Origin: a virus
Taxonomy: Duplodnaviria; Heunggongvirae; Uroviricota; Caudoviricetes
Direction: 5' to 3' (one strand)
IMG/VR virus record: IMGVR_UViG_2703718791_000013
Length of the DNA stretch: 33,668 nucleotides
The notes beneath the pieces are model-generated. The model saw only the letters and a program-made list of their open reading frames with translations, was not told where the DNA came from and made no database searches. A program made the translations under genes and the position numbers. Shown here one piece after another: positions 2,273-31,853 of the stretch; positions within the stretch are counted from its first letter, which is position 1; each line of letters opens with the position of its first letter.

Positions 2273-3702
2273 TCCTCCTCATACGAAATATTAAAGGTGG
2301 AGTTTTCTGTATCCAGATAAACGAAATCGTAAAAGCCGTTGGACTCATTCCACTCGACAAATTCCAGATAAAAGTCGCGGAAATAACCCAGCGTTTCGAT
2401 AAATGCCCAAACGTCTTTTTTCTTGATTAGGATGTACTTGCCGACACGGTTCGGATCAAAGAAAGTTGAGTCACGCCCAAATTTTGTTTCCAGTGCCGAC
2501 TTCAGCTCATCAGTCACGTTCTCAATGGTCAGGCTTGCCGATATCCGCCCAGTGATGGTGATCTTAAAGGGGAGTTTTCTGACCTCTTTATACGAGAATT
2601 TCTTGTTCAACTCATTCGGCACCTTCTTAAAGGCAGCCAGGATCATTTCTTCAAGCTCTGACTGGCTTTTGTTTGGATGCCATCCTGAAATAAATATCTT
2701 ATTGATATTCCGAACATTATAAGCACCATCTAATTTCTCTTGCTGGCCTTCGCCCCATGCCTTTACCCAGGACAGTCCCGGGATGTTACGCACCAGAAAA
2801 TACGTATAGTCCCCGCCCCATACGACCTGATCATCATAGGCAAGGTAATATTGTGCACGATTACGTGTGATCTCCGTTGTTTCGGCATCGGTACCTGCGG
2901 TTATGGGTGTCGTTGTCTTAACTGAAATCAAATTAGCTAAATTAGCCGCAGAATCGACAGGAGTCAGGTTTTGGCCAGCAACCAGGGTTATATCTCCGTT
3001 GGTGCACCATACCTTAAGTGTAATGGTCGAGCCTTCTGGCGGTATTTGCCCAATTAGCCCATCACCGAATCGAACCCCCAACTGCTCGGATGGCTTATAA
3101 AACTCAACGTAGACCTGGCTTTTACTACCGGCTAACCGGAACATAGTGCTGGAAGACCACTGCGTGGTCTTACCATCGGTCGTCACGAATACTTCCAGCT
3201 TACAGCAGACAGCAGTGAGAGCCTTTGATAACACGACTTCCAGAAATTCTTTGGCTGCCGTAACGGTATATGTCACCTCCTGGATTTCCAACTGTGCCAC
3301 TTCTACCGTACCGGTGCCGTCAACCAACCTGCATACATCCATAGTCATGTAAGGGTACTGGTCGTCAGATATTAAAGGCATGTTTTTGGGGATTACCGCT
3401 GGGGCATCTTCACTTGTGGCGGTGATCTCAATCATCCCCGATGACGGTGTTGGCTTGGTACCAACGTAACTATTCGTTTCTGCCGCTGCCAGGATAGAGG
3501 AACGCCGCGTCGCGGTCGATATAAAGCCTTCAGCCAGCGCCGCATCGGCATACTGAAAGCACCTGTAGACAATCTGGGTAATAAACAATGTCAGCATCGA
3601 GACAAATTGAGAGCCGACAAACTTCGACCAGAATGAATCTTTCTCGACAAGCTCTTCAAACTCTGCACGAATACTGTCTTTAGTCGGTGTTGTTTTACTC
3701 AT
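2269..3702 (-). CDS. Baseplate protein, 477 aa (P1 BplA-like by position)
   Basis: ORF track. Translationally coupled to both neighbours by overlapping stop/start codons. Confidence 0.45.
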   Translation of the reverse strand: MSKTTPTKDSIRAEFEELVEKDSFWSKFVGSQFVSMLTLFITQIVYRCFQYADAALAEGFISTATRRSSILAAAETNSYVGTKPTPSSGMIEITATSEDAPAVIPKNMPLISDDQYPYMTMDVCRLVDGTGTVEVAQLEIQEVTYTVTAAKEFLEVVLSKALTAVCCKLEVFVTTDGKTTQWSSSTMFRLAGSKSQVYVEFYKPSEQLGVRFGDGLIGQIPPEGSTITLKVWCTNGDITLVAGQNLTPVDSAANLANLISVKTTTPITAGTDAETTEITRNRAQYYLAYDDQVVWGGDYTYFLVRNIPGLSWVKAWGEGQQEKLDGAYNVRNINKIFISGWHPNKSQSELEEMILAAFKKVPNELNKKFSYKEVRKLPFKITITGRISASLTIENVTDELKSALETKFGRDSTFFDPNRVGKYILIKKKDVWAFIETLGYFRDFYLEFVEWNESNGFYDFVYLDTENSTFNISYEEE

Positions 3703-4058: not shown

Positions 4059-7000
4059 TCAACTCTCGCGTAGTCATTCATCAACGGATCATCAATTGAC
4101 AGTGGCACCGTGCGCATAACGCCCGGTTGAGGCGTGCTGACCTTTACGACAGTTCCCTGGCCTTTCGCCGAGTCTTTAGTGTGCTCTTCAATCCTGGCAA
4201 GCAATGAGGTCATCTGCGCAAACAGCCGCTTCGTTTCACCATCAAGTGAAACGGTATTATCAGCCAACTGCATTGTCGGCTTGGCACCGGAGCCGCCAAG
4301 GTCACTAATAACCTGTCCGTCTATCTGCATACGACCGGTTGGTTGCTGCAAATCGTTGGCGGCAGTCGTCACCTGGGACGTGGAGGCTGGTTCAGGCGCA
4401 TTATTTTTCCGCATCCCCGGCGAGTTGCGGAGTTTATCAAATAGCCCATCAATCCCCATTTGTGCGCCGAGTTGGTCAAAGTAACTTGAGTTGCTGGCCA
4501 CCGGACGCGCCTCTTCAACTGGCATCGGAGTATCAACATACACATTGCCAGCTGCTGTTGCGGTCCCCTTCCCTCGTGCACGTTCTTCGAGCGTTCCCTG
4601 AACGACTTCCCGACGCATACCCCGGCCATTCATGAATTTGTTGACCAGATCGTTAACGCCAACAGCATTGCCAATTTTGTCTACCAGACCGCCTTTCTCA
4701 AACGGGCTATCACCAGGGGTAAACGCCAGGCCAGTAGACTGATCGATAACAGCGTTATCAGGCAGTGGTCCCCTCACTCCATATTGCGCCCCACCCTGTG
4801 CTCCTGCTCCAGGTGTATAGATTTCACCACCTAAATAGCGAGCACGATGAGTATTGACCTTGATCGCGTACTCACGGTTTTCTTTCGATAAGTCACCTGT
4901 GCCTTTTTTCCACTTATTGATAGTGCCAAACCCAGCATTATATGCAGTGATGGCCTCGTTTAAGTCTCCATTGGCTTGCTTCAGATATTTGCTCATGAGA
5001 AGAGCCGCAGCTTCTGCCGATTTCACAGGATCAAACGATTCACCTTCAGCTAAGCCAGTCTCTTCACGAGCAATCCCCGTGAACTGAAACATCCCCAGAG
5101 CACCGGTTTGGGATTTTGCATACGGATTACCACCAGATTCAGTTGCAGCAATCGCGTAAAGAGTGCCTTCTGGAAGACCGTATTTATTCTCTAGTTCGGC
5201 AAAATACGGAGCCAACTTATCGAGATTTGCCTTACCTTCAGCGCCAAGACTTCCGACTTTTACATCCAAGTTGCCATTGTTGTAGGTATCCGCAGCTTTC
5301 TGAATGTCATTCCTGGTGCCAGTGGTATTAAGCGACGATGATGACGAGCTATTTTGACCAATAGCTTTATCAATTTTCTGCAACGCGCTATTGCCCGTTT
5401 CTACGGCATTTGCATTGATAATCTGATTAGCAGTTTCTTTAACTGTTTTATTGCTATCTTTCGCCGTGTCCAGTGCCGCATTTATCACGCGGGTAACAAT
5501 ATTAGTCTGTTTGGCATCGGATTCAGTTTTAGAATCAGATGTCTCCTGGTGGCTATTAACCGGAGCTTTTAACTCTGGAGTGATTTCTTTCGCATTAGCC
5601 TCGCCGATCGGATTGGGTATTTTTGATACAATCATTGCCGCAGGGGTATTTTTAACGGCATCAACCGCTGCATCTAATGCTTTACCTGGTAAATTTTTAA
5701 CCCCATCCCAAATATTACCAGCCGCCTCTTTAATGTGTTTCCCTGGGTTCTTAATGAAATCAATTGCACTATCAATTGCATCACTGAAAACCTGTTTCAG
5801 GTTATCGACAGTAAAGAAGTCTTTGATGGCATCCAGCTTTTCAAGCAGCTTATTAGATGTATCGCTAAACCATGCTGAAACAGCATCACCAATCTTTGCT
5901 GTGTAATCATCGAACTTGGTAGAAATGGTGTCGCCAAGGTTAGAAATATATGTTTCTAAGTTGGTAATCCCACTATCAATGGCATGGGCAATACTTTCCG
6001 TCGAAAATGATTGCAACATATTGCCGATATCCTCAAATCCAAGTGATTTGAGAACCTCACCAATGGCGCTGCTAATACCAGATACCAGTCCCCCCATATC
6101 AAGAATATTAGCTAACGTATAAGCGGCTTTTTGCTGGAATGATGGATCTTGTCCTGATTTAAGCCCAAACGCTCGACGTTGCGCTTCTGTATCATTCCAA
6201 CCGGTTACCGCATCATAAATACCTCCAACCACTGTGCCGACTAGGGGAATTGCGCGTAACGCCCCTTTACCAACTGCCTTTAATCCAAGTTTACCTGCTG
6301 CCCGGGCAGCCAAATCTCCGCCTTCATGGGCGAGAGTCTTCTTACCACCACCGCGTAGCATTCCTACAAGTTTCTTTGCCCCCAGAGCGCCAAAAGCGAG
6401 TGCTCCAGCTTTTTTCAGCATGCCACGCCCCATTAACAACGACGCGACGCCACCGGCCCCCTTCCCTAACAGGCTAAATAGTTTGGACAGCAAGCCGCCC
6501 TTCTTTTTCCCGGTGTTTTTGGCTATCTGATCAAGGGCGCTGAGAATCTTGTCATTGCCCTCTTTAATTTCGCTGGTCTGCTCCTGAAGTTCCTGAACCG
6601 TCCGTTTTTGGGTGTTAACCTGAACGACATCGGCACTATTTTGCGATTTACGCCTAAAAAAACCTTTTCTACGGCTGTTATCGTCATTGCCACGAATCAC
6701 ATCGGCAATAGACTTTCTGGCACCATTAAGCGATCCGCCAACTTCTTTTGATATCCCGCCAAGCTCCTTCCCTGCTGCCCACAATGGACCTGCAACGGCA
6801 TAACCTAACGCATCGACAGCACGAGTCTCTGAAGGGTTACCTATGCCTTCAGCTACTTTTGACAGTTTTTTTAATAAACCTGATTCAGCATTTAGACGCT
6901 CATCATCCTCTTTTCGCCTGGCCTTTTCTGCTCGTTCAGCACGGGCATCTTCCGCTGCGGCCTTACTCCCTGACTTTCCAATAAAACGACCACGCGCATC

Positions 7001-13762: not shown

Positions 13763-14608
13763 ATGCTGGCTAAAGTCACTTTCCTGAGCTGTATAACGAT
13801 GAGCGATTTTACTTTTTCTGGCTATGAATTGGCCTGCTTTGTAACACACTCCGGTCTATCCCGTAGCGCCGGGCATATCCTGTCGCAATGTGCAAATCTC
13901 GCGGCAACAACCAGTGAATACTTCATTCACAAGCCTCACCGCCTGATCGCGGCAGAAACTGGTTATAGCCAATCAACCGTCGTTCGTGCATTCCGTGAAG
14001 CTGTAAACAAAGGAATTCTATCTGTAGAGATTGTTATCGGCGATCACCGTGAACGTCGCGCTAACCTGTACCGGTTTACACCATCCTTTTTGGCCTTCGC
14101 ACAACAAGCCAAAAATGCGCTGATTGAAAGCAAATTAAAGATCTCTTCAGCGGCAACCAAGGTTAAAGCTGTTCTCGCTAAGACATTGGCTTTATTTAAT
14201 TTTTTATCCACACCCCCATGTCAAAATGATACCCCCTCCCCCTGTCAGGATGACGTGGCAATAAAGAATAAGAAGTCACAAATTAAAAAAACAAAAAGAT
14301 CAGTTTCCGGCGGTGCCGAAACGACCAGCCTCAAAAAACTGACTTCATGGATCGCCGAGGCAAAAGCAAAGGCTGACAATCTGCGGTTATCCAAAAAACG
14401 CGCTCAAAAACATGAGTTCAAGCAGAAAGTAGAGGCGGCAGCGCGGAAATATGCTTACCTGAAGAACAAGCGTTCTCCTGATATTGGCGGGGTATCAAAC
14501 TTCGATAATTTGCCGCATTGCATGACGGTAAACGAAGCTCTTAATGCGGTTTTAGCCAAAAATAAAGATAACGAACAATGGGGTATACCGGCAGGATTTA
14601 GAGGGTGA
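13763..14608 (+). CDS. repL: RepL, lytic replication initiator, 281 aa
   Basis: ORF track. Size and position after kilA under the C1-controlled promoter. Confidence 0.7.
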   Translation: MLAKVTFLSCITMSDFTFSGYELACFVTHSGLSRSAGHILSQCANLAATTSEYFIHKPHRLIAAETGYSQSTVVRAFREAVNKGILSVEIVIGDHRERRANLYRFTPSFLAFAQQAKNALIESKLKISSAATKVKAVLAKTLALFNFLSTPPCQNDTPSPCQDDVAIKNKKSQIKKTKRSVSGGAETTSLKKLTSWIAEAKAKADNLRLSKKRAQKHEFKQKVEAAARKYAYLKNKRSPDIGGVSNFDNLPHCMTVNEALNAVLAKNKDNEQWGIPAGFRG

Positions 14609-14904: not shown

Positions 14905-14989
14905 TACAATCGTTGCGGGTGCTTGAGGCTATCTGCTTCAGGCATTACCCGAAAAGCAGATAGAAGAAAGCCCCAGATAACATTACGCG

Positions 14990-15060
14990 TCCTGCAAGAC
15001 GCTTAACATTAATCTGAGGCAATATCTATGCTTAGCATACGTAGATTAGCCTCTTACCGA
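14990..15060 (-). ncRNA. sok: Putative Sok-like antisense RNA (position inferred, not read directly)
   Basis: Inferred only from hok/sok architecture, in which the antisense RNA overlaps the mok translation start (mok ATG at 15028). Confidence 0.25.
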
Positions 15061-15234
15061 CCAAAAGGTCAAGGAGAAGCAGGCTATGAAGCAGCAAAAA
15101 GCGATATTAATCGCTCTGATCGTCATCTGTTTAACCGTCATTGTGACGGCACTGGTAACGAGGAAAGACCTCTGCGAGGTACGAATCCGAACCGGCCAGA
15201 CGGAGGTCACTGTCTTCACAGCCTACGAATCTGA
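15028..15234 (+). CDS. mok: Mok-like reading frame overlapping hok, 68 aa
   Basis: ORF track. Overlaps the hok frame out of phase, as in hok/mok/sok loci. Confidence 0.5.
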   Translation: MLSIRRLASYRPKGQGEAGYEAAKSDINRSDRHLFNRHCDGTGNEERPLRGTNPNRPDGGHCLHSLRI

Positions 15235-23675: not shown

Positions 23676-24535
23676 TATTCGGGGAGTTTCAGCTTTGGAT
23701 TGCGAGAATGGACGATTACAAAACTTTCCCGGCCTTTCTTCTCAATAGAACAGTCGAGATAGCCGATTGTTTTAAGCTGTTCTATCGCTTTCTTAATGAT
23801 ACGGTTTTGCTCGCCAACAGCTGACTGCAAAGCCAGGCGCTCACGGATTCGCGCGAACGATAGCGGCAACGGGTTCTGCGGAAGGCTTTCGATGAAAGTG
23901 TAAATGGCTTGTGCAGCTTCTTTCTTCGGAAGGGCACGCAAGGCGTGGTGTTGCAACAGAACGCGATAATCAAGCTGGAACAGCTCCCACAACTTCGAAT
24001 CAGCCTCCAGCTCTATCAGATCAAGGTCAGCATCAAAACGCCCGACCTTCAGCAGACCAGTCTGATAGCCGCCTTTAGCATCTTTTCCGCGCTTAAAAGC
24101 GATACCCTTGTTACGCAAGCGTCCAAGTGATTCATGAATGGTTAAACGCAGTTTCGCATCCAGACGTTTTGAGGGGAAACCACAGGCTTTAGCGAATTCC
24201 TGAAACGATAACTGGATGGTGTTTGAGGACAAGCCGTATTTGCTGAACGCGTAGATGACACCGATCCACGTTTTGAAATCAGTATCCATATCGAGTCGAG
24301 GACCGGTGATTTTAATATCATCGTAACCCTCGGCTTTAGCTATCTCCAGCTGGGAAAACGCTTTGGTGGCATCAATCTCTTTACTTTCTCCTTTGCTCTT
24401 TGATGGCTTCGGCACGAATACCCCCAAGCGCATCAACGCTACAGGCTGCACAGTGTTGTTTGAATTAACTGTTAGTTCTTTTGCCTTACTTTCAATGTCT
24501 GCGTAAAGAATATCGGAGATAAAAGATTGATTCAT
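23675..24535 (-). CDS. repA: RepA plasmid replication initiator, 286 aa
   Basis: ORF track. Flanked by iteron arrays on both sides. Confidence 0.85.
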   Translation of the reverse strand: MNQSFISDILYADIESKAKELTVNSNNTVQPVALMRLGVFVPKPSKSKGESKEIDATKAFSQLEIAKAEGYDDIKITGPRLDMDTDFKTWIGVIYAFSKYGLSSNTIQLSFQEFAKACGFPSKRLDAKLRLTIHESLGRLRNKGIAFKRGKDAKGGYQTGLLKVGRFDADLDLIELEADSKLWELFQLDYRVLLQHHALRALPKKEAAQAIYTFIESLPQNPLPLSFARIRERLALQSAVGEQNRIIKKAIEQLKTIGYLDCSIEKKGRESFVIVHSRNPKLKLPE

Positions 24536-24590
24536 ATTACTTTTTCCGAATTATGTGGATAGCTTTTATAAGTGGTGATAACTACCCAGG

Positions 24591-24815
24591 CTTTCCCGTC
24601 AGCACACATCCTATATCCCGCCAGCACACATTAGCAACCCGTCAGCACACATTTTTATCCCTCCAGCACACATCGTTTTCCCTCCAGCACACATCGCGAT
24701 ACACCTCTAAGCCAGACGTGGCGCGGCCTGCAACGATCAGGGATCTATATGGATCTAATTGGGATCTGTATGGACCTAATTATTGGATCTACCCAGTGGA
24801 TAATGTGGATAAGTG
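24591..24815. promoter_or_regulatory. oriR: five incC iterons, a cluster of five GATC sites and tandem DnaA boxes
   Basis: Iterons ...CCAGCACACATC at 24591-24696. GATC at 24736, 24743, 24755, 24767 and 24787. TGTGGATAA twice at about 24797-24812, and a further DnaA-like box near 24552. Confidence 0.8.
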
Positions 24816-24861
24816 AAAAACCGGCCACTGAGGACCGATTTCTGTGAAGAGTTGAAGCGAA

Positions 24862-25263
24862 TTAGTTGTCGTTTTCCGTACCTACTTCTTCGATCAACAA
24901 ACTACTTGTATAGATGCGTAACGTATCACCTTTGTAGAGGAATTGATAACCAACACCTCCTATGGCAGGGAGGTCGGGGAACATTTCAGAAGCAACCCCA
25001 GAGCAAATCACGGCGATACAGTCATCCCGCTGTACATCCTTACGCTCTGTACTCAAAGTTTGCTCTTCCCCGATTGCCTTTGTCATCTCCTCATCTTCGT
25101 ACGCAACAGGGATATATTCAATCGCATCAGGCGTTTTGATACCCAGTTCTTCAGCAATCTCGAACGCCTGTTTAAATTGATCTGACCCAGGATATCCAAC
25201 GGTAATACTCTCAATTTCGAACAAAGAAGTAGCGTTGTTTATTTCTTGTTTAACCGCAAACAT
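24862..25263 (-). CDS. Hypothetical protein, 133 aa (P1 UpfA position)
   Basis: ORF track. Confidence 0.45.
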   Translation of the reverse strand: MFAVKQEINNATSLFEIESITVGYPGSDQFKQAFEIAEELGIKTPDAIEYIPVAYEDEEMTKAIGEEQTLSTERKDVQRDDCIAVICSGVASEMFPDLPAIGGVGYQFLYKGDTLRIYTSSLLIEEVGTENDN

Positions 25264-25333
25264 GTTGTTTGTCCTTAGTGGCTTCCTGCCAAAGTAAAGT
25301 CATGAGTGTTGATATTACGATTTCTACAGTTGA

Positions 25334-25693
25334 TTAAATCTGCTCGCTGAGCTTTTGCTTCAGCAGATAACCTTCCAGCGGCCAGATTTTCTCAATGGCG
25401 TTCTTACGGGCCACCTTACGGCCAATCTCCGCGTCGAAATTTTTAGGGCTGGCACAGGCGCTTTCCCCGGTAACAATGAATCCATTGCACAGCACCAAGA
25501 CACAGATGGTCAGGCTACGCGTAGAGGGATGAACAGACAGCACCTCACGAACGCCTTCATGCGCAGCGCGAATGCCGTCAAAAGCTGTGAAATAATGCTC
25601 TTCGGCAATCACACTCTCGATGTGATCAGGAGTCAGGCGTGGTGCTGTTTTGCCTTTGGCCAGAATCTCTTTTTCAATTTCCATATCGGACAT
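25334..25693 (-). CDS. Conserved phage protein, 119 aa
   Basis: ORF track. Confidence 0.45.
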   Translation of the reverse strand: MSDMEIEKEILAKGKTAPRLTPDHIESVIAEEHYFTAFDGIRAAHEGVREVLSVHPSTRSLTICVLVLCNGFIVTGESACASPKNFDAEIGRKVARKNAIEKIWPLEGYLLKQKLSEQI

Positions 25694-25704
25694 AGTTTTT
25701 CCTT

Positions 25705-26037
25705 TTAGTTACCGCTGATAGCACGGTTGTAATCATTGACGTTGCGATTCTTCCTGTTAATCCCCATCAGCATCGTTTCTGTATCGAGGATATACGCTGG
25801 CAGATCATCAAAATATTCACTGCTAAACTCTGGCATCCTGCACATAAACGCACTTTTGGGGGCAGGGTGGTTAACCTTTGTCGGCGTCGGCGTTAAATTC
25901 GCTGATCGACTCCCGGAGCAACCGCTGAGTGTCAGCAGGAATGCGCTGGCGAACATTACCCGCCGCAACCAGTTGTTTCTGAACTTCTGCTTTTCGTTCC
26001 ATTTGCCTGTCAGCATACTTGGCTTGTTCTGATTCAT
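25705..26037 (-). CDS. Lipoprotein (lipobox LTLSGC); alternative start at 25956 gives 83 aa
   Basis: ORF track. Signal peptide MFASAFLLTLSG followed by Cys. The 5' part overlaps the 3' end of the next gene out of frame. Confidence 0.5.
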   Translation of the reverse strand: MNQNKPSMLTGKWNEKQKFRNNWLRRVMFASAFLLTLSGCSGSRSANLTPTPTKVNHPAPKSAFMCRMPEFSSEYFDDLPAYILDTETMLMGINRKNRNVNDYNRAISGN

Positions 26038-26293
26038 TTTTCACTTCCTGGCTGTGAAAATGTTGATCTGCTTTGTTCATCGTCTCAATGGTCTGGTTAA
26101 GATCCATTATTGACTTATCACGTTCCTTAACAGCCTGATCAAGACTGCCAATTTTATCCAAGGCTTGCTTTAGCTGATGACGTTCCCATGCAAACCCGGC
26201 ACCAACAAGTGCGCAAATCAGAACAAGAACACCAGTAGCAGCAAGTTTCTCCTTCAAAGACAAAGCTGTTTTTAACGTAGAAAAGAATGACAT
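25871..26293 (-). CDS. Rz-like membrane-anchored coiled-coil protein, about 140 aa
   Basis: ORF track (25871..26320); start placed at MSFFSTL. N-terminal TM segment LAATGVLVLICALVGAGFAW, then a charged helical region. Confidence 0.45.
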   Translation of the reverse strand: MSFFSTLKTALSLKEKLAATGVLVLICALVGAGFAWERHQLKQALDKIGSLDQAVKERDKSIMDLNQTIETMNKADQHFHSQEVKNESEQAKYADRQMERKAEVQKQLVAAGNVRQRIPADTQRLLRESISEFNADADKG

Positions 26294-26332
26294 GTCTTCC
26301 TCCTGAAGAAAAATTATCAATGAAGTCCTTTG

Positions 26333-27121
26333 TTACTGTGCCGCTTTGTTTAATTCATCAAGAACAGAATCAGGAACCAAAGCGGCGACTGCGCTGGCTG
26401 TGCTGGCCTTATTTGCTGATGCTTCCGCAAGCGCGGTACCGATAGCATGGTTATAAGCAGTTATGGCTACGCTGGCGCTTTCCTTCGCTCGTTCATACTG
26501 CTGTTGCAATGCTGCTACCGGTACTGTTGTCTGGTCGAAAAAAGCACCAAATTGTTCAGTTGCTTCCTTCAGTGCTTCAACTTGTTGTTCTGTCAGTGCT
26601 GGTGGGGGAGTGACTGCGCCGCCACCTGAATCAGAGCCTGACGAGCTTCCTGAGCCTGTGTTAAGGGTCTGGTTAATGTCCCCCATAGCAGCGACTAAAC
26701 TCGACGTATTAAGCGCATTTACAGAGTCCTCAAGCGATTTCGTTGTAGTCGCGTCACCAATGGCAATAGAGATCGGCAGTTCTGAAACTTCTCGCTCATT
26801 AGCACGACAGTAAACATCCCAACCAATATCGAGTTGAAGGAGCATTGACAGATCAGCATAACCAGCCAACAGGTCCGCGTGCTGAGTTGCCAGCCCTCCA
26901 ATATTCGTTAAACCAGTTGCGGTTGTTCTGATCGTTGAAACATAGCTGGTAATAGTGTCGGGATAGACAATTGTATCCAGAATTAATCCGGTCAATTCTT
27001 CTGCAAGCAGTTTTGCTGTGTTAGCACTGTTTCGTGCCGATGTTATGGCACCAGGTGTTTTCATCCCACCGGCGGCGGACAATTTTTTATATGCGGATAA
27101 CTGGTAGTCTTTTTCCAGCAT
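26333..27121 (-). CDS. Hypothetical protein, 262 aa, Ser/Gly-rich linker
   Basis: ORF track (26333..27178); start placed at ATG 27121, which is preceded by AGGAGAT. Confidence 0.45.
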   Translation of the reverse strand: MLEKDYQLSAYKKLSAAGGMKTPGAITSARNSANTAKLLAEELTGLILDTIVYPDTITSYVSTIRTTATGLTNIGGLATQHADLLAGYADLSMLLQLDIGWDVYCRANEREVSELPISIAIGDATTTKSLEDSVNALNTSSLVAAMGDINQTLNTGSGSSSGSDSGGGAVTPPPALTEQQVEALKEATEQFGAFFDQTTVPVAALQQQYERAKESASVAITAYNHAIGTALAEASANKASTASAVAALVPDSVLDELNKAAQ

Positions 27122-27129
27122 GATATCTC

Positions 27130-27414
27130 CTAACTTACCTGAACCAGGCCGTCTCCGGCTGCAACGGTAGAGCCGCATGAAACAGGATCACCAACGCATA
27201 AGATCCCTTTCCCGTTGACGGTAAACCATGCCCTGGTTGATATAGCTTGCCCGCCGTGCGTGCTGTTCCCATCGGTATGCTGTGCATATTGCTTACCATC
27301 AACTAACACTTCGACTCCGTTGACTTTAAGTAGTGGTTCGCTCTCTACGGGAGGCCTGGATGGGAATCCTCCGTGCCCCGAACAAATGCTGTCTTTTGTT
27401 GCAATACTCGCCAC
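27130..27414 (-). CDS. PAAR-domain protein, 94 aa
   Basis: ORF track. Repeated PAAR-like segments DSICSGHGGFP and VGDPVSCGSTVAAGDGLVQV. Confidence 0.55.
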   Translation of the reverse strand: MASIATKDSICSGHGGFPSRPPVESEPLLKVNGVEVLVDGKQYAQHTDGNSTHGGQAISTRAWFTVNGKGILCVGDPVSCGSTVAAGDGLVQVS

Positions 27415-27495
27415 ATCACCACCAATGATTTGCTCTGATTTTCGTTATTTTAACTTAGGTTATTTGTGGTCTGTATGGCGTTTACTTATTACAAA

Positions 27496-27512
27496 ATTGC
27501 TCTAATAAATAT
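27496..27512 (+). promoter_or_regulatory. C1 operator (ATTGCTCTAATAAATAT) in the divergent region between the PAAR operon and uhr-hrdC-dmt
   Basis: One mismatch to the operator 17-mer; overlaps a TTGCTC -35-like hexamer. Confidence 0.55.
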
Positions 27513-27583
27513 TGTTTTTTATGTCGTGTTTTCGGTACCATTCAGCCATCGCCCTTCAATGGGCATTTGTTTGGAGTCGTCAG

Positions 27584-27868
27584 ATGCAGATGGAGCTAAT
27601 AAGCCGCAAGGAGTTCGATAGCCGTGTAACCAGCGGTGAACTCGACAACTTGCAGGCTATCAAGGTGAAAGAAGGCTTTTGCCTCATTGGGAATCAGAGC
27701 GGAACAAATCGCGTTTTTATGCTTCGCCGTACGGATTTGAAGCCATTTGTCTGGAAGAACGAAATTGGTCCCAGCTCATACGCTCAAACGAGGGGGTGCC
27801 ACAACCTGGCCTTTTTCTACAAAGACGAGCTTTCTGTGGTTGATATTCAAGGGTTACAACATGTTTAA
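27584..27868 (+). CDS. uhr: Small protein upstream of hrdC, 94 aa
   Basis: ORF track (27512..27868); start placed at ATG 27584 after GGAG. Named by P1 position. Confidence 0.45.
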
Positions 27869-31699: not shown

Positions 31700-31775
31700 G
31701 ATGGTGTAGCTCAGCGGTTAGAGCGGTTGACTGTTAATCAACGGGTCGATGGTTCAAATCCATCCACCATCGCCA
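31700..31775 (+). tRNA. tRNA-Asn (anticodon GTT), with encoded CCA
   Basis: Hand-folded cloverleaf: acceptor GATGGTG/CACCATC, D-stem GCTC/GAGC, anticodon stem GTTGA/TCAAC with loop CTGTTAA, T-arm GATGG-TTCAAAT-CCATC, discriminator G, CCA. Confidence 0.85.
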
Positions 31776-31777
31776 AT

Positions 31778-31853
31778 GCCGGTTTAGCTCAGTTGGTAGA
31801 GCGCCTGCCTTGTAAGCAGGATGTCAGCGGTTCGAGTCCGTTAATCGGCACCA
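31778..31853 (+). tRNA. tRNA-Thr (anticodon TGT), with encoded CCA
   Basis: Hand-folded cloverleaf: acceptor GCCGGTT/AATCGGC (one G-U), D-stem GCTC/GAGC, anticodon stem CCTGC/GCAGG with loop CTTGTAA, T-arm AGCGG-TTCGAGT-CCGTT, discriminator A, CCA. Only 2 nt after tRNA-Asn. Confidence 0.85.

Follow-up and report, generated by a model that had tools for sequence, protein, structure and literature searches.

A P1-like phage-plasmid locus with tail-tip genes, a predicted spanin pair, an Acb4-family gene and a divergent upfA allele

The window analysed here, a stretch of 33,668 nucleotides, was found by sequence comparison to be ~98% identical to P1 and derives from a P1-like phage-plasmid. The locus under study very probably represents the upfC-upfB-ppfA-mlp-upfA cluster of such a phage-plasmid with the addition of an Acb4-family gene, and it lies with oriR on one side and the divergent, C1-controlled uhr-hrdC-dmt operon on the other. 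The P1 literature and databases already describe this cluster: which genes it has and in what order, the PAAR-like tip with its tripod, and the assignment of the spanins. An ORF check confirmed that six minus-strand ORFs are real: upfC (27130-27414, 94 aa, GTG start), upfB (26333-27121, 262 aa), ppfA (25871-26293, 140 aa, a predicted i-spanin), mlp (25705-26037, 110 aa, a predicted o-spanin and outer-membrane lipoprotein precursor), an Acb4-family gene (PF13876, “Gp49 family”; 25334-25693, 119 aa, a predicted cyclic-dinucleotide sponge) and a divergent upfA allele (24862-25263, 133 aa, pI 4.05). All six starts were preceded by a Shine-Dalgarno-like sequence, including AGGAGG for ppfA and AGGAAG for mlp. 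From upfC onward the genes were spaced by 8 nt, 39 nt, a 167-nt overlap of ppfA and mlp, 11 nt and 70 nt, and Rfam and tRNA scans found no RNA genes inside the cluster. The reference P1 cluster (NC_005856 62950-65063, P1_gp062-066) shares the order, the strand and the position from oriR to Op68/Pdmt, with nucleotide sequences 98.5% identical over a stretch that takes in mlp to upfC and continues beyond it, but contains five genes where the window variant contains six.

The first gene had been read as encoding a PAAR-like protein, and this identification held as a PAAR-like/gp5.4-like tip protein. Over 94 aligned residues, UpfC showed a single difference from the P1 chain named “UpfC” in PDB 9vyi_A (E 1.4e-60), and phmmer also matched it to T4 gp5.4 (5iv5/4ku0, E about 3e-7; 2.9e-7 for 5iv5) and to the PAAR protein 4jiv_D (E 5e-4). 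Profile searches for PAAR gave a mixed result: PHROG 281 “PAAR motif” matched at E 6.6e-30, whereas the Pfam PAAR_motif (PF05488; 26.7 bits, E 6.6e-6) fell 0.3 bits short of its gathering score of 27.0 and the NCBIfam T6SS_PAAR_dom scored 35.5 bits against a cutoff of 124, with an alignment covering residues 4-93 of 94. Like T4 gp5.4 and the PAAR proteins of type VI secretion systems (T6SS), UpfC consists of a single domain of ~95 aa, and one copy of such a protein caps a trimeric beta-helix spike. The residues His14, His46, His53 and Cys80 of UpfC align to the His/His/His/Cys of gp5.4, and we take these aligned positions to be the metal ligands of PAAR proteins. In place of literal P-A-A-R motifs UpfC has GVEVLV and GKGILC; gp5.4 likewise lacks the literal motifs. 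In P1, cryo-EM places UpfC as a monomer cone on the gp5 trimer (PMC12810830; PDB 9vyi). LC-MS/MS left UpfC undetected (PMC9024508).

The second gene encodes an acidic protein of 262 aa with a Ser/Gly-rich linker in its centre, 98.9% identical to P1 UpfB. An upstream ATG at 27178 would extend it to the 281 aa annotated in P1. The 262-aa start is better supported, since PHROG 1559 (E 2e-134) begins to align only at residue 20 of the long ORF and a strong Shine-Dalgarno sequence, AGGAG, lies 6 nt upstream of the shorter start, overlapping the upfC stop codon; the gene calls of the sequence-only reading, including this shorter start, were sound. The occurrence of UpfB was limited to P1-like phages, JK004 and D6, and a search of PDB sequences gave no relatives. 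The 2026 P1 cryo-EM study describes it as the “tripod”, three trimers anchored at the spike tip (PMC12810830). The T4 spike is without this tripod, which the P1 tip has as an extra partner (PMC12810830), and P1 gp5 is without a lysozyme domain (PMC12810830, PMC9024508). Because the window sequences of UpfC and UpfB are near-identical to those of P1, the tip roles seen by cryo-EM would apply to the window variant also.

We then considered how these genes are expressed. The P1 Lpa-dependent late promoter comprises a 9-bp -22 box (AAGTGACTT-like), a 4-bp spacer and a -10 hexamer, and we built a PWM from 7 annotated P1 late promoters, which themselves score 17.7-22.7. A strict search for the late-promoter pattern found no match near the cluster, and a minus-strand scan of 24500-27800 found no usable sigma-70 consensus upstream of upfC. 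The PWM identified a degenerate candidate late-promoter-like element on the minus strand at 27447-27465 (AAATAACCT-AAGT-TAAAAT), whose end lies 32 nt before the upfC start codon. Its score of 12.6 was the best on that strand in 24800-27800 and the fifth best in the window, but ~1.7 matches scoring as highly are expected per shuffled window, making this weak evidence; a similar site, scoring 10.4, lies at the corresponding position in P1. A second such element lies on the minus strand at 26313-26331 (AAAGGACTT-CATT-GATAAT), in the 39-nt gap before ppfA, and is identical in P1; its score of 10.0 is suggestive, with ~8.8 such matches expected per shuffled window. The promoter region had also been linked to a C1 operator at 27496-27512. 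This 17-bp plus-strand site is genuine and is the exact counterpart of P1 Op68/Odmt (coordinate offset 21946), but it does not belong to the cluster, since the P1 annotation assigns it to the divergent plus-strand Pdmt and since in P1vir RNA-seq the cluster is late and uhr-hrdC-dmt is early.

These RNA-seq values come from a published table for reference P1vir, a phage without the acb4-like gene, rather than from the window variant. Between 10 and 30 min the log fold change rose from 4.9 to 10.6 for upfC, 4.1 to 11.1 for upfB, 5.6 to 11.2 for ppfA, 4.1 to 10.5 for mlp and 5.2 to 11.2 for upfA, compared with 4.7 to 11.4 for the late gene 22 and 6.1 to 11.3 for lyz, and with 8.6 to 11.1 for the early gene uhr and 9.4 to 12.0 for hrdC. 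The difference between the two time points was 5.7-6.9 for the five cluster genes, 5.3-7.4 for known late genes and 2.0-2.6 for uhr, hrdC, dmt, parA and parB. The five P1 cluster genes therefore show late kinetics in P1vir.

The locus had been described as a six-gene operon. The six genes are indeed adjacent, although a single operon is suggested by their spacing only and reference P1 has five genes. They could instead form two or three late units, one of upfC-upfB, one of ppfA-mlp and the genes downstream, and maybe a separate start for the upfA allele. The P1 record predicts two sigma-70 promoters, P1ppfA and P2ppfA, inside upfB (NC_005856), which may mean more than one transcript, and the element before ppfA conserved in P1 and the 70-nt gap preceding the last gene point in the same direction. 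However, these promoters are only predicted and match their consensus poorly, on the minus strand the scan of 24500-27800 found no terminator-like site between cluster genes, just 8 nt separate upfC from upfB, and at 10 as well as 30 min the RNA-seq levels of the five P1 genes are almost the same. We regard a division into several units as possible but somewhat doubtful. The cluster is probably transcribed from a late promoter ahead of upfC that is weak or atypical, a placement which we infer from sequence, possibly with a second start before ppfA.

The two genes nearest oriR had been described as small conserved proteins. Both are present, and they proved to be the Acb4-family gene and the upfA allele, in a region which had already been reported as highly variable. 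The 856 bp at 24828-25683 stand in place of 409 bp of reference P1, comprising upfA and its 3' flank: blastn against P1 gave 98.5% identity over 25684-27800 and 98.1% over 24400-24827, with no match between. The right junction falls 10 nt inside the start of the Acb4-family gene, and in the alignment both the Acb4-family protein and P1 UpfA start with MSD. This segment was present in 59 plasmid records, at ≥ 99% identity in 56 of them, and had earlier been noted in pJIE250-3 (PMC6906374); the replacement variant is common. The last gene (24862-25263) is a UpfA allele only 54% identical to P1 UpfA in a backbone which is otherwise 98% identical. UpfA corresponds to PHROG 1453 and is rare, very acidic, with a pI of about 4, and mostly beta-strand; no fold relative of the allele was detectable. 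UpfA also occurs on its own, on the opposite strand, within an unrelated lambdoid early region. The literature that we searched calls this variant an upfA deletion, but what was described as two ORFs replacing upfA is in fact a divergent upfA that has been retained, together with an added Acb4-family gene.

The Acb4-family gene (25334-25693) is absent from reference P1. Its product matched Pfam PF13876 over profile positions 1-82 of 82 (E 1.1e-33, 116 bits against a cutoff of 27), and phmmer matched it to Acb4 (9e4w_A) at E 8.7e-4. Using its AF2 model (pLDDT 79.9), the top 13 Foldseek matches in the PDB were all chains of 9e4w, with a probability of 1.00 and target-normalised TM scores of 0.61-0.73, and the first match outside 9e4w had an E of 0.23; the predicted fold is thus that of the Acb4 protomer. 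PF13876 is the Acb4 family, of which all eight of eight diverse homologues bound 3'3'-cGAMP, those from phages of Gram-negative hosts also binding 3'3'-cAA (bioRxiv 10.1101/2024.12.30.630793). Our literature search found no paper joining Acb4 with P1-like phages. We also considered whether PF13876 genes regularly follow spanin genes, and this was ruled out by two other contexts: in Akira the PF13876 gene comes after the coat gene, and its KP8 counterpart is one of a group of small genes that precedes the virion RNA polymerase gene, with a DUF2829 gene close by.

Bacillus phage SPO1 Acb4 (9e4w), the founding PF13876 member, shares its family, its fold and several hydrophobic or aromatic pocket residues with the window protein, but identity is ≤ 24% and the window protein is 119 aa long compared with 96 aa. 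Based on the alignment and the list of ligand contacts, four of nine SPO1 contacts are kept or conservative (K36 to R59, F48 to F72, F62 to F86 and I66 to I90), whereas the others have changed (E49 to I73, V56 to C80, Y57 to A81, T70 to V94 and N63 to D87, the last a backbone contact). The protein might therefore be a family member with another ligand or role rather than an anti-CBASS sponge: the guanine-specifying Glu and the phosphate-contacting Tyr and Thr (E49, Y57 and T70 of SPO1) are among the residues lost, it carries an N-terminal extension relative to the SPO1 protein, and it would be synthesised late if it is co-transcribed with the cluster. Such a departure nevertheless seems unlikely given the high-scoring full-length family match and the modelled Acb4 fold, the binding of 3'3'-cGAMP by every homologue in the Acb4 study and of 3'3'-cAA by those of Gram-negative-host phages, and the retention of F72, F86 and I90 with an arginine, R59, in place of the lysine. 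A sponge which would sequester the cyclic-dinucleotide signals of CBASS is the role that we favour.

The third and fourth genes had been proposed to form a spanin-type pair from their membrane-anchored coiled-coil and overlapping lipoprotein architecture, and profile searches for spanin families bore this out. PpfA has a hydrophobic stretch, LAATGVLVLICALVGAGFAW, downstream of a Lys-rich N-terminus, and matched PHROG 89 “Rz-like spanin” over residues 21-139 (E 2.6e-24); there was a weak match to P2 LysB (TIGR03495, E 0.002), and its weak Pfam matches were to mostly helical or coiled-coil families. Mlp matched PHROG 30284 (E 2.9e-77) and PHROG 456 (E 3.7e-5), both labelled Rz-like spanin. It has the lipobox L-S-G|C within TLSG, with Cys40 followed by Ser at +2, and so is without an inner-membrane retention residue; the mature protein has 71 aa, begins with CSGS and contains 6 Pro and one further Cys. 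The mlp start lies inside ppfA with a frame offset of 1, and after the 167-nt overlap mlp runs past the ppfA end; JK004 retains this M1 start but lacks the internal Met codons. In the P1 row of Table S1 of Kongari 2018, gp064 (PpfA) is listed as an overlapped i-spanin with a 104-aa periplasmic domain and gp063 (Mlp) as an overlapped o-spanin, annotated “too long signal sequence”, with LipoP cleavage at residue 39 giving an unusually long signal of 39 residues; this is the only spanin pair in that row. In architecture the pair is like lambda Rz/Rz1 and P2 LysB/LysC, being a type II inner-membrane protein and an out-of-frame lipoprotein of the overlapped class. Unlike in these systems, there is no holin or endolysin neighbour, the signal has 39 residues, and the i-spanin is without a periplasmic Cys, the o-spanin having one.

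It should be noted that in P1 this pair (63.4-63.9 kb) is unlinked to the lysis genes lyz/lydD (20.0-20.9 kb) and lydA/lydB (30.4-31.2 kb) and has been called “yet another unlinked operon” (PMC9025707). In CRISPRi experiments in P1 the EOP was 1.3 for ppfA and 0.24 for mlp, both being scored as non-essential with plaques not abolished. PpfA and Mlp might thus be envelope proteins for superinfection exclusion, help with DNA entry or prophage-plasmid physiology, a role which would explain why the pair travels with the tail-tip genes upfC-upfB, to which it is still linked in D6, and not with holin or endolysin genes, and for which the unlinked position, the CRISPRi result and the atypically long Mlp signal could be cited. 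This is highly improbable, however, because the pair shows the sequence and architecture hallmarks of two-component spanins and matches Rz-like profiles, is the sole pair in the P1 row of that table, and has late kinetics resembling those of lysis genes, and because a phage is expected to do without spanins in standard shaken culture or on plates (PMC9025707).

The combination of a PAAR tip with a spanin pair had been regarded as unusual, but it is the annotated P1 arrangement, and UpfB too is a tail-tip protein. The four-gene order upfC-upfB-ppfA-mlp is kept in both JK004 and D6, in which UpfB shows 59% and 27% identity, respectively. JK004 has the same overlapping ppfA/mlp arrangement, and in D6 the ORF at 4170-4502 carries the lipobox LMTLSG|C and also overlaps by 167 nt. 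Since it is also present in JK004 and D6, the grouping of spike tip and spanin is an inherited feature of the P1/JK004/D6 lineage.

The cluster would thus place three kinds of late or accessory function head to tail: a tail tip, a spanin and a variable slot. UpfC would form a single PAAR-like/gp5.4-like cone with a His3-Cys site, capping the gp5 beta-helix trimer, and UpfB a trimeric tripod on the tip, so that the two would sharpen and decorate the membrane-piercing end of the tail. PpfA would be anchored in the inner membrane, its helical domain lying in the periplasm, and Mlp would be a lipoprotein delivered to the outer membrane; once Lyz, the endolysin, has removed the peptidoglycan, the pair would fuse or disrupt both membranes to finish lysis, a final step deduced from the sequence features above. 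The slot next to oriR is variable, and here holds the Acb4-family protein and the divergent UpfA. The fast-diverging upfA alleles and the lone-gene occurrence in a lambdoid early region could suggest that the mlp-oriR slot is a small counter-defence islet in which UpfA, as an anti-defence or host-takeover protein, travels with the Acb4-family sponge, but we attach little credence to this. Still more speculative is the idea that the linkage of tip and spanin in P1, JK004 and D6 stems from a common function in membrane fusion during both entry and exit.

The PAAR-like tip and the predicted spanin pair of the sequence-only reading stand, whereas the view of their grouping as unusual and the link to the operator do not. 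The discovery value of the locus is small, as the P1 literature and databases already contained these assignments together with the gene order. The predicted spanin pair is the sole P1 candidate in the Table S1 entry of Kongari 2018. For the variant in which the upfA region is replaced, the predicted Acb4-family protein suggests that it may counter CBASS in Enterobacteriaceae.

By megablast of 24500-27800 and 1-24000, the window belongs to a P1-like phage-plasmid (Punavirus): it shares ~98% identity with P1 and is equivalent to ~37-71 kb of that phage. Six minus-strand ORFs (24862-27414) were confirmed at exactly the positions of the sequence-only reading, and the P1 record labels this region upfC (P1_gp066), upfB, ppfA, mlp and upfA, all on the minus strand. 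The cluster is a known P1 arrangement, the parts of which the sequence-only reading had identified correctly and which are already assigned: UpfC and UpfB by structure and the spanins by curated prediction. In P1 it is flanked by the plasmid origin oriR on one side and by the C1 operator Op68/Odmt with the plus-strand promoter Pdmt on the other. Its distance from the tail and baseplate genes is real. In P1, no other virion operon is nearer than that of genes 23-22-21-pmgG-bplB, which starts ~4 kb to the left, past par and rep; on the right, ~8.6 kb separate upfC from genes 5 and 6. Such a distance is typical of the scattered morphogenetic genes of P1.

The grouping itself, which had been called unusual, is a lineage trait and not an oddity of this sequence, being also found in the related phages JK004 (upfC-upfB-ppfA-mlp-upfA; UpfB 59% identical) and D6 (upfC-upfB, followed by a TM/coiled-coil ORF; UpfB 27% identical). 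In D6 (NC_050154.1), an ORF at 4170-4502 (+) overlaps the TM/coiled-coil ORF by 167 nt, and its product, starting MKSLALKMRYAVLGLTMCVCLMTLSG|C, is a lipoprotein that shares 30% identity with P1 Mlp. In the record this ORF is present only in truncated form, as orf54 from 4281, in which the signal peptide is lost. The o-spanin start was thus mis-called, and the full ORF, with its 167-nt overlap, completes an unannotated overlapped pair of predicted spanins in D6.

The first gene of the cluster, upfC (27130-27414), had been read as PAAR-like and this was borne out. Its product has 1 difference in 94 residues to PDB 9vyi chain A (named “UpfC”) and matches T4 gp5.4 (5iv5, 4ku0; E about 3e−7) and the PAAR protein 4jiv_D (E 5e−4), with His14, His46, His53 and Cys80 aligning with His/His/His/Cys in these proteins. 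In profile searches it matched PHROG 281 (E 6.6e−30) and scored 26.7 bits for Pfam PAAR_motif, slightly under the 27.0 cutoff. In the 2026 cryo-EM study of P1, UpfC was built as a monomer partnering trimeric gp5 in the spike and UpfB was described as a novel “tripod”, made up of three trimers that are anchored at the spike tip (PMC12810830). An earlier study had predicted the kinship of UpfC and gp5.4 by HHpred and found that deletion of upfC leaves plaquing unimpaired (PMC9024508). UpfB (26333-27121) has no sequence relative in the PDB, and among deposited phages it was found only in P1-like phages, JK004 and D6. As UpfB too belongs to the tip, upfC and upfB form a small structural module.

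The next two genes, ppfA (25871-26293) and mlp (25705-26037), encode the predicted spanin pair. In PpfA, a Lys-rich N-terminus and a single hydrophobic segment are followed by a long polar region, which matches PHROG 89 “Rz-like spanin” (E 2.6e−24) and, weakly, P2 LysB. Mlp carries the lipobox TLSG|C (Cys40, followed by Ser at +2), and its mature part of 71 aa contains six Pro and one further Cys. The PHROG 89 match, the lipobox and the 167-nt overlap of the genes all point to a spanin-like pair, as had been proposed, and a curated prediction exists for P1: the P1 entries in Table S1 of Kongari et al. 2018 give gp064 as overlapped i-spanin and gp063 as overlapped o-spanin, the latter with the remarks “too long signal sequence” and LipoP cleavage at residue 39. 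It should be noted that PMC9025707 gives the o-spanin label to ppfA and the i-spanin label to mlp, which is reversed with respect to the sequences, where the membrane anchor is in PpfA and the lipobox in Mlp; the labels in those Kongari entries (PpfA i-spanin, Mlp o-spanin) agree with the sequences. The long Mlp, starting at M1, is supported by JK004, where Mlp keeps 110 aa and the Met codons internal to the P1 gene are absent. By genome-wide CRISPRi all five P1 cluster genes were non-essential (mlp EOP 0.24), a result which is uninformative on spanins under plate conditions.

Read on the minus strand, every start in the cluster is preceded by a Shine-Dalgarno sequence: GGTGGTGA before the GTG codon of upfC, AGGAG 6 nt upstream of upfB (262 aa) and overlapping the upfC stop, AGGAGG for ppfA, AGGAAG for mlp, and AAGGAA and TAAGGA for the last two genes. 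The spacing between genes is, in order, 8 nt, 39 nt, the 167-nt out-of-frame overlap, 11 nt and 70 nt. The 262-aa UpfB is better supported than the 281 aa annotated in P1, as the PHROG 1559 alignment begins only at residue 20 of the longer product.

We also examined how the cluster may be expressed. The operator at 27496-27512, which had been linked to the cluster, is Op68/Odmt and belongs, according to the P1 record, to Pdmt on the opposite strand. The link is not supported as stated, given that assignment and the late kinetics of the cluster in P1vir RNA-seq (PMC8201110 Table S1). Log fold changes at 10 and 30 min were 4.9 and 10.6 for upfC, 4.1 and 11.1 for upfB, 5.6 and 11.2 for ppfA, 4.1 and 10.5 for mlp and 5.2 and 11.2 for upfA; for the late genes 22, sit and lyz they were 4.7 and 11.4, 3.7 and 11.0, and 6.1 and 11.3, and for the early genes uhr, hrdC and dmt 8.6 and 11.1, 9.4 and 12.0, and 8.8 and 11.2. 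The genes of the cluster are therefore regulated together, as late genes, unlike the divergent operon controlled by Op68.

In a sequence scan, neither a sigma-70 consensus upstream of upfC nor a terminator between the cluster genes was detected. A weight matrix built from the seven annotated late promoters of P1 recovered the three positioned inside the window (scores 19.6-22.7) and gave lower scores to two sites at the cluster: AAATAACCTAAGTTAAAAT at 27447-27465, ending 32 nt upstream of upfC (score 12.6), and AAAGGACTTCATTGATAAT at 26313-26331, just before ppfA (score 10.0). P1 has a similar site near upfC (score 10.4) and an identical one before ppfA (score 10.0). Shuffled sequence gave about 1.7 matches of ≥ 12.6 and about 8.8 of ≥ 10 per window, and both sites are only suggestive, the RNA-seq data being more telling. 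One transcript for the whole cluster is plausible, but a six-gene operon is not supported as stated. The P1 record also predicts internal promoters within upfB. Elsewhere, AAGTGACTTTAGCCAGCAT at 13763-13781 (−), between kilA and repL and antisense into kilA, is near the P1 late-promoter consensus (score 16.4); the P1 record annotates no late promoter in this region.

The two last genes lie in a replaced segment. Homology to P1 (blastn) ends at 24827 and restarts at 25684, with 856 bp of the window in place of 409 bp of P1. The right junction (25684-25693, −) lies within the first small gene (25334-25693, 119 aa), 10 nt from its 5′ end; the gene begins MSD like P1 UpfA, so the cassette was spliced in at the upfA start, reusing its ribosome-binding site and start. 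This gene matches the whole of Pfam PF13876 (N4 gp49 / Sf6 gp66; 116 bits) and, weakly, PDB 9e4w, “anti-CBASS 4 (Acb4)”, the chains of which were the only significant PDB structure matches to its AF2 model (pLDDT 79.9). In the Acb4 study, SPO1 Acb4 belongs to PF13876 and 3′3′-cGAMP was bound by 8/8 homologues tested. Membership of the PF13876/Acb4 family is solid, ligand specificity less so: at the nine positions of ligand contact, residues are retained or conservatively exchanged in four cases and changed in five. In the N4-like Klebsiella phage KP8 (NC_048700.1), the region 2501-3572 also has a PF13876 gene, with a DUF2829 gene two places downstream of it. DUF2829 is the Tad2 anti-Thoeris sponge family, and the two may form a small anti-signalling gene cluster.

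The 856-bp variant was present in 59 plasmid records. The pJIE250-3 paper describes it as “2 orfs ... deleting P1 upfA”; in this variant a divergent allele (24862-25263, 133 aa) stands in for P1 upfA, which is thus replaced and not deleted. Across P1-like phage-plasmids, eight regions are highly variable and repA-upfA is one of them, whereas conservation is among the highest for mlp, ppfA and upfC. At another known variable region, rlfA-rlfB in P1, the window has a full-length sok antitoxin RNA of the hok/sok type (RF01794, 114 bits, Rfam) at 14917-15091 (+), just after repL, which suggests that this variant has a hok/sok addiction module at that place. Downstream of dmt, adjacent tRNA-Asn(GTT) and tRNA-Thr(TGT) genes were found at 31700-31853 (+), where P1 has a trnT gene according to the CRISPRi table.

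What is added here to the known P1 arrangement is at the level of annotation only: the Acb4-family gene, the divergent upfA allele, the predicted D6 spanin pair with its mis-called o-spanin start, and the late kinetics of the cluster drawn from published data.
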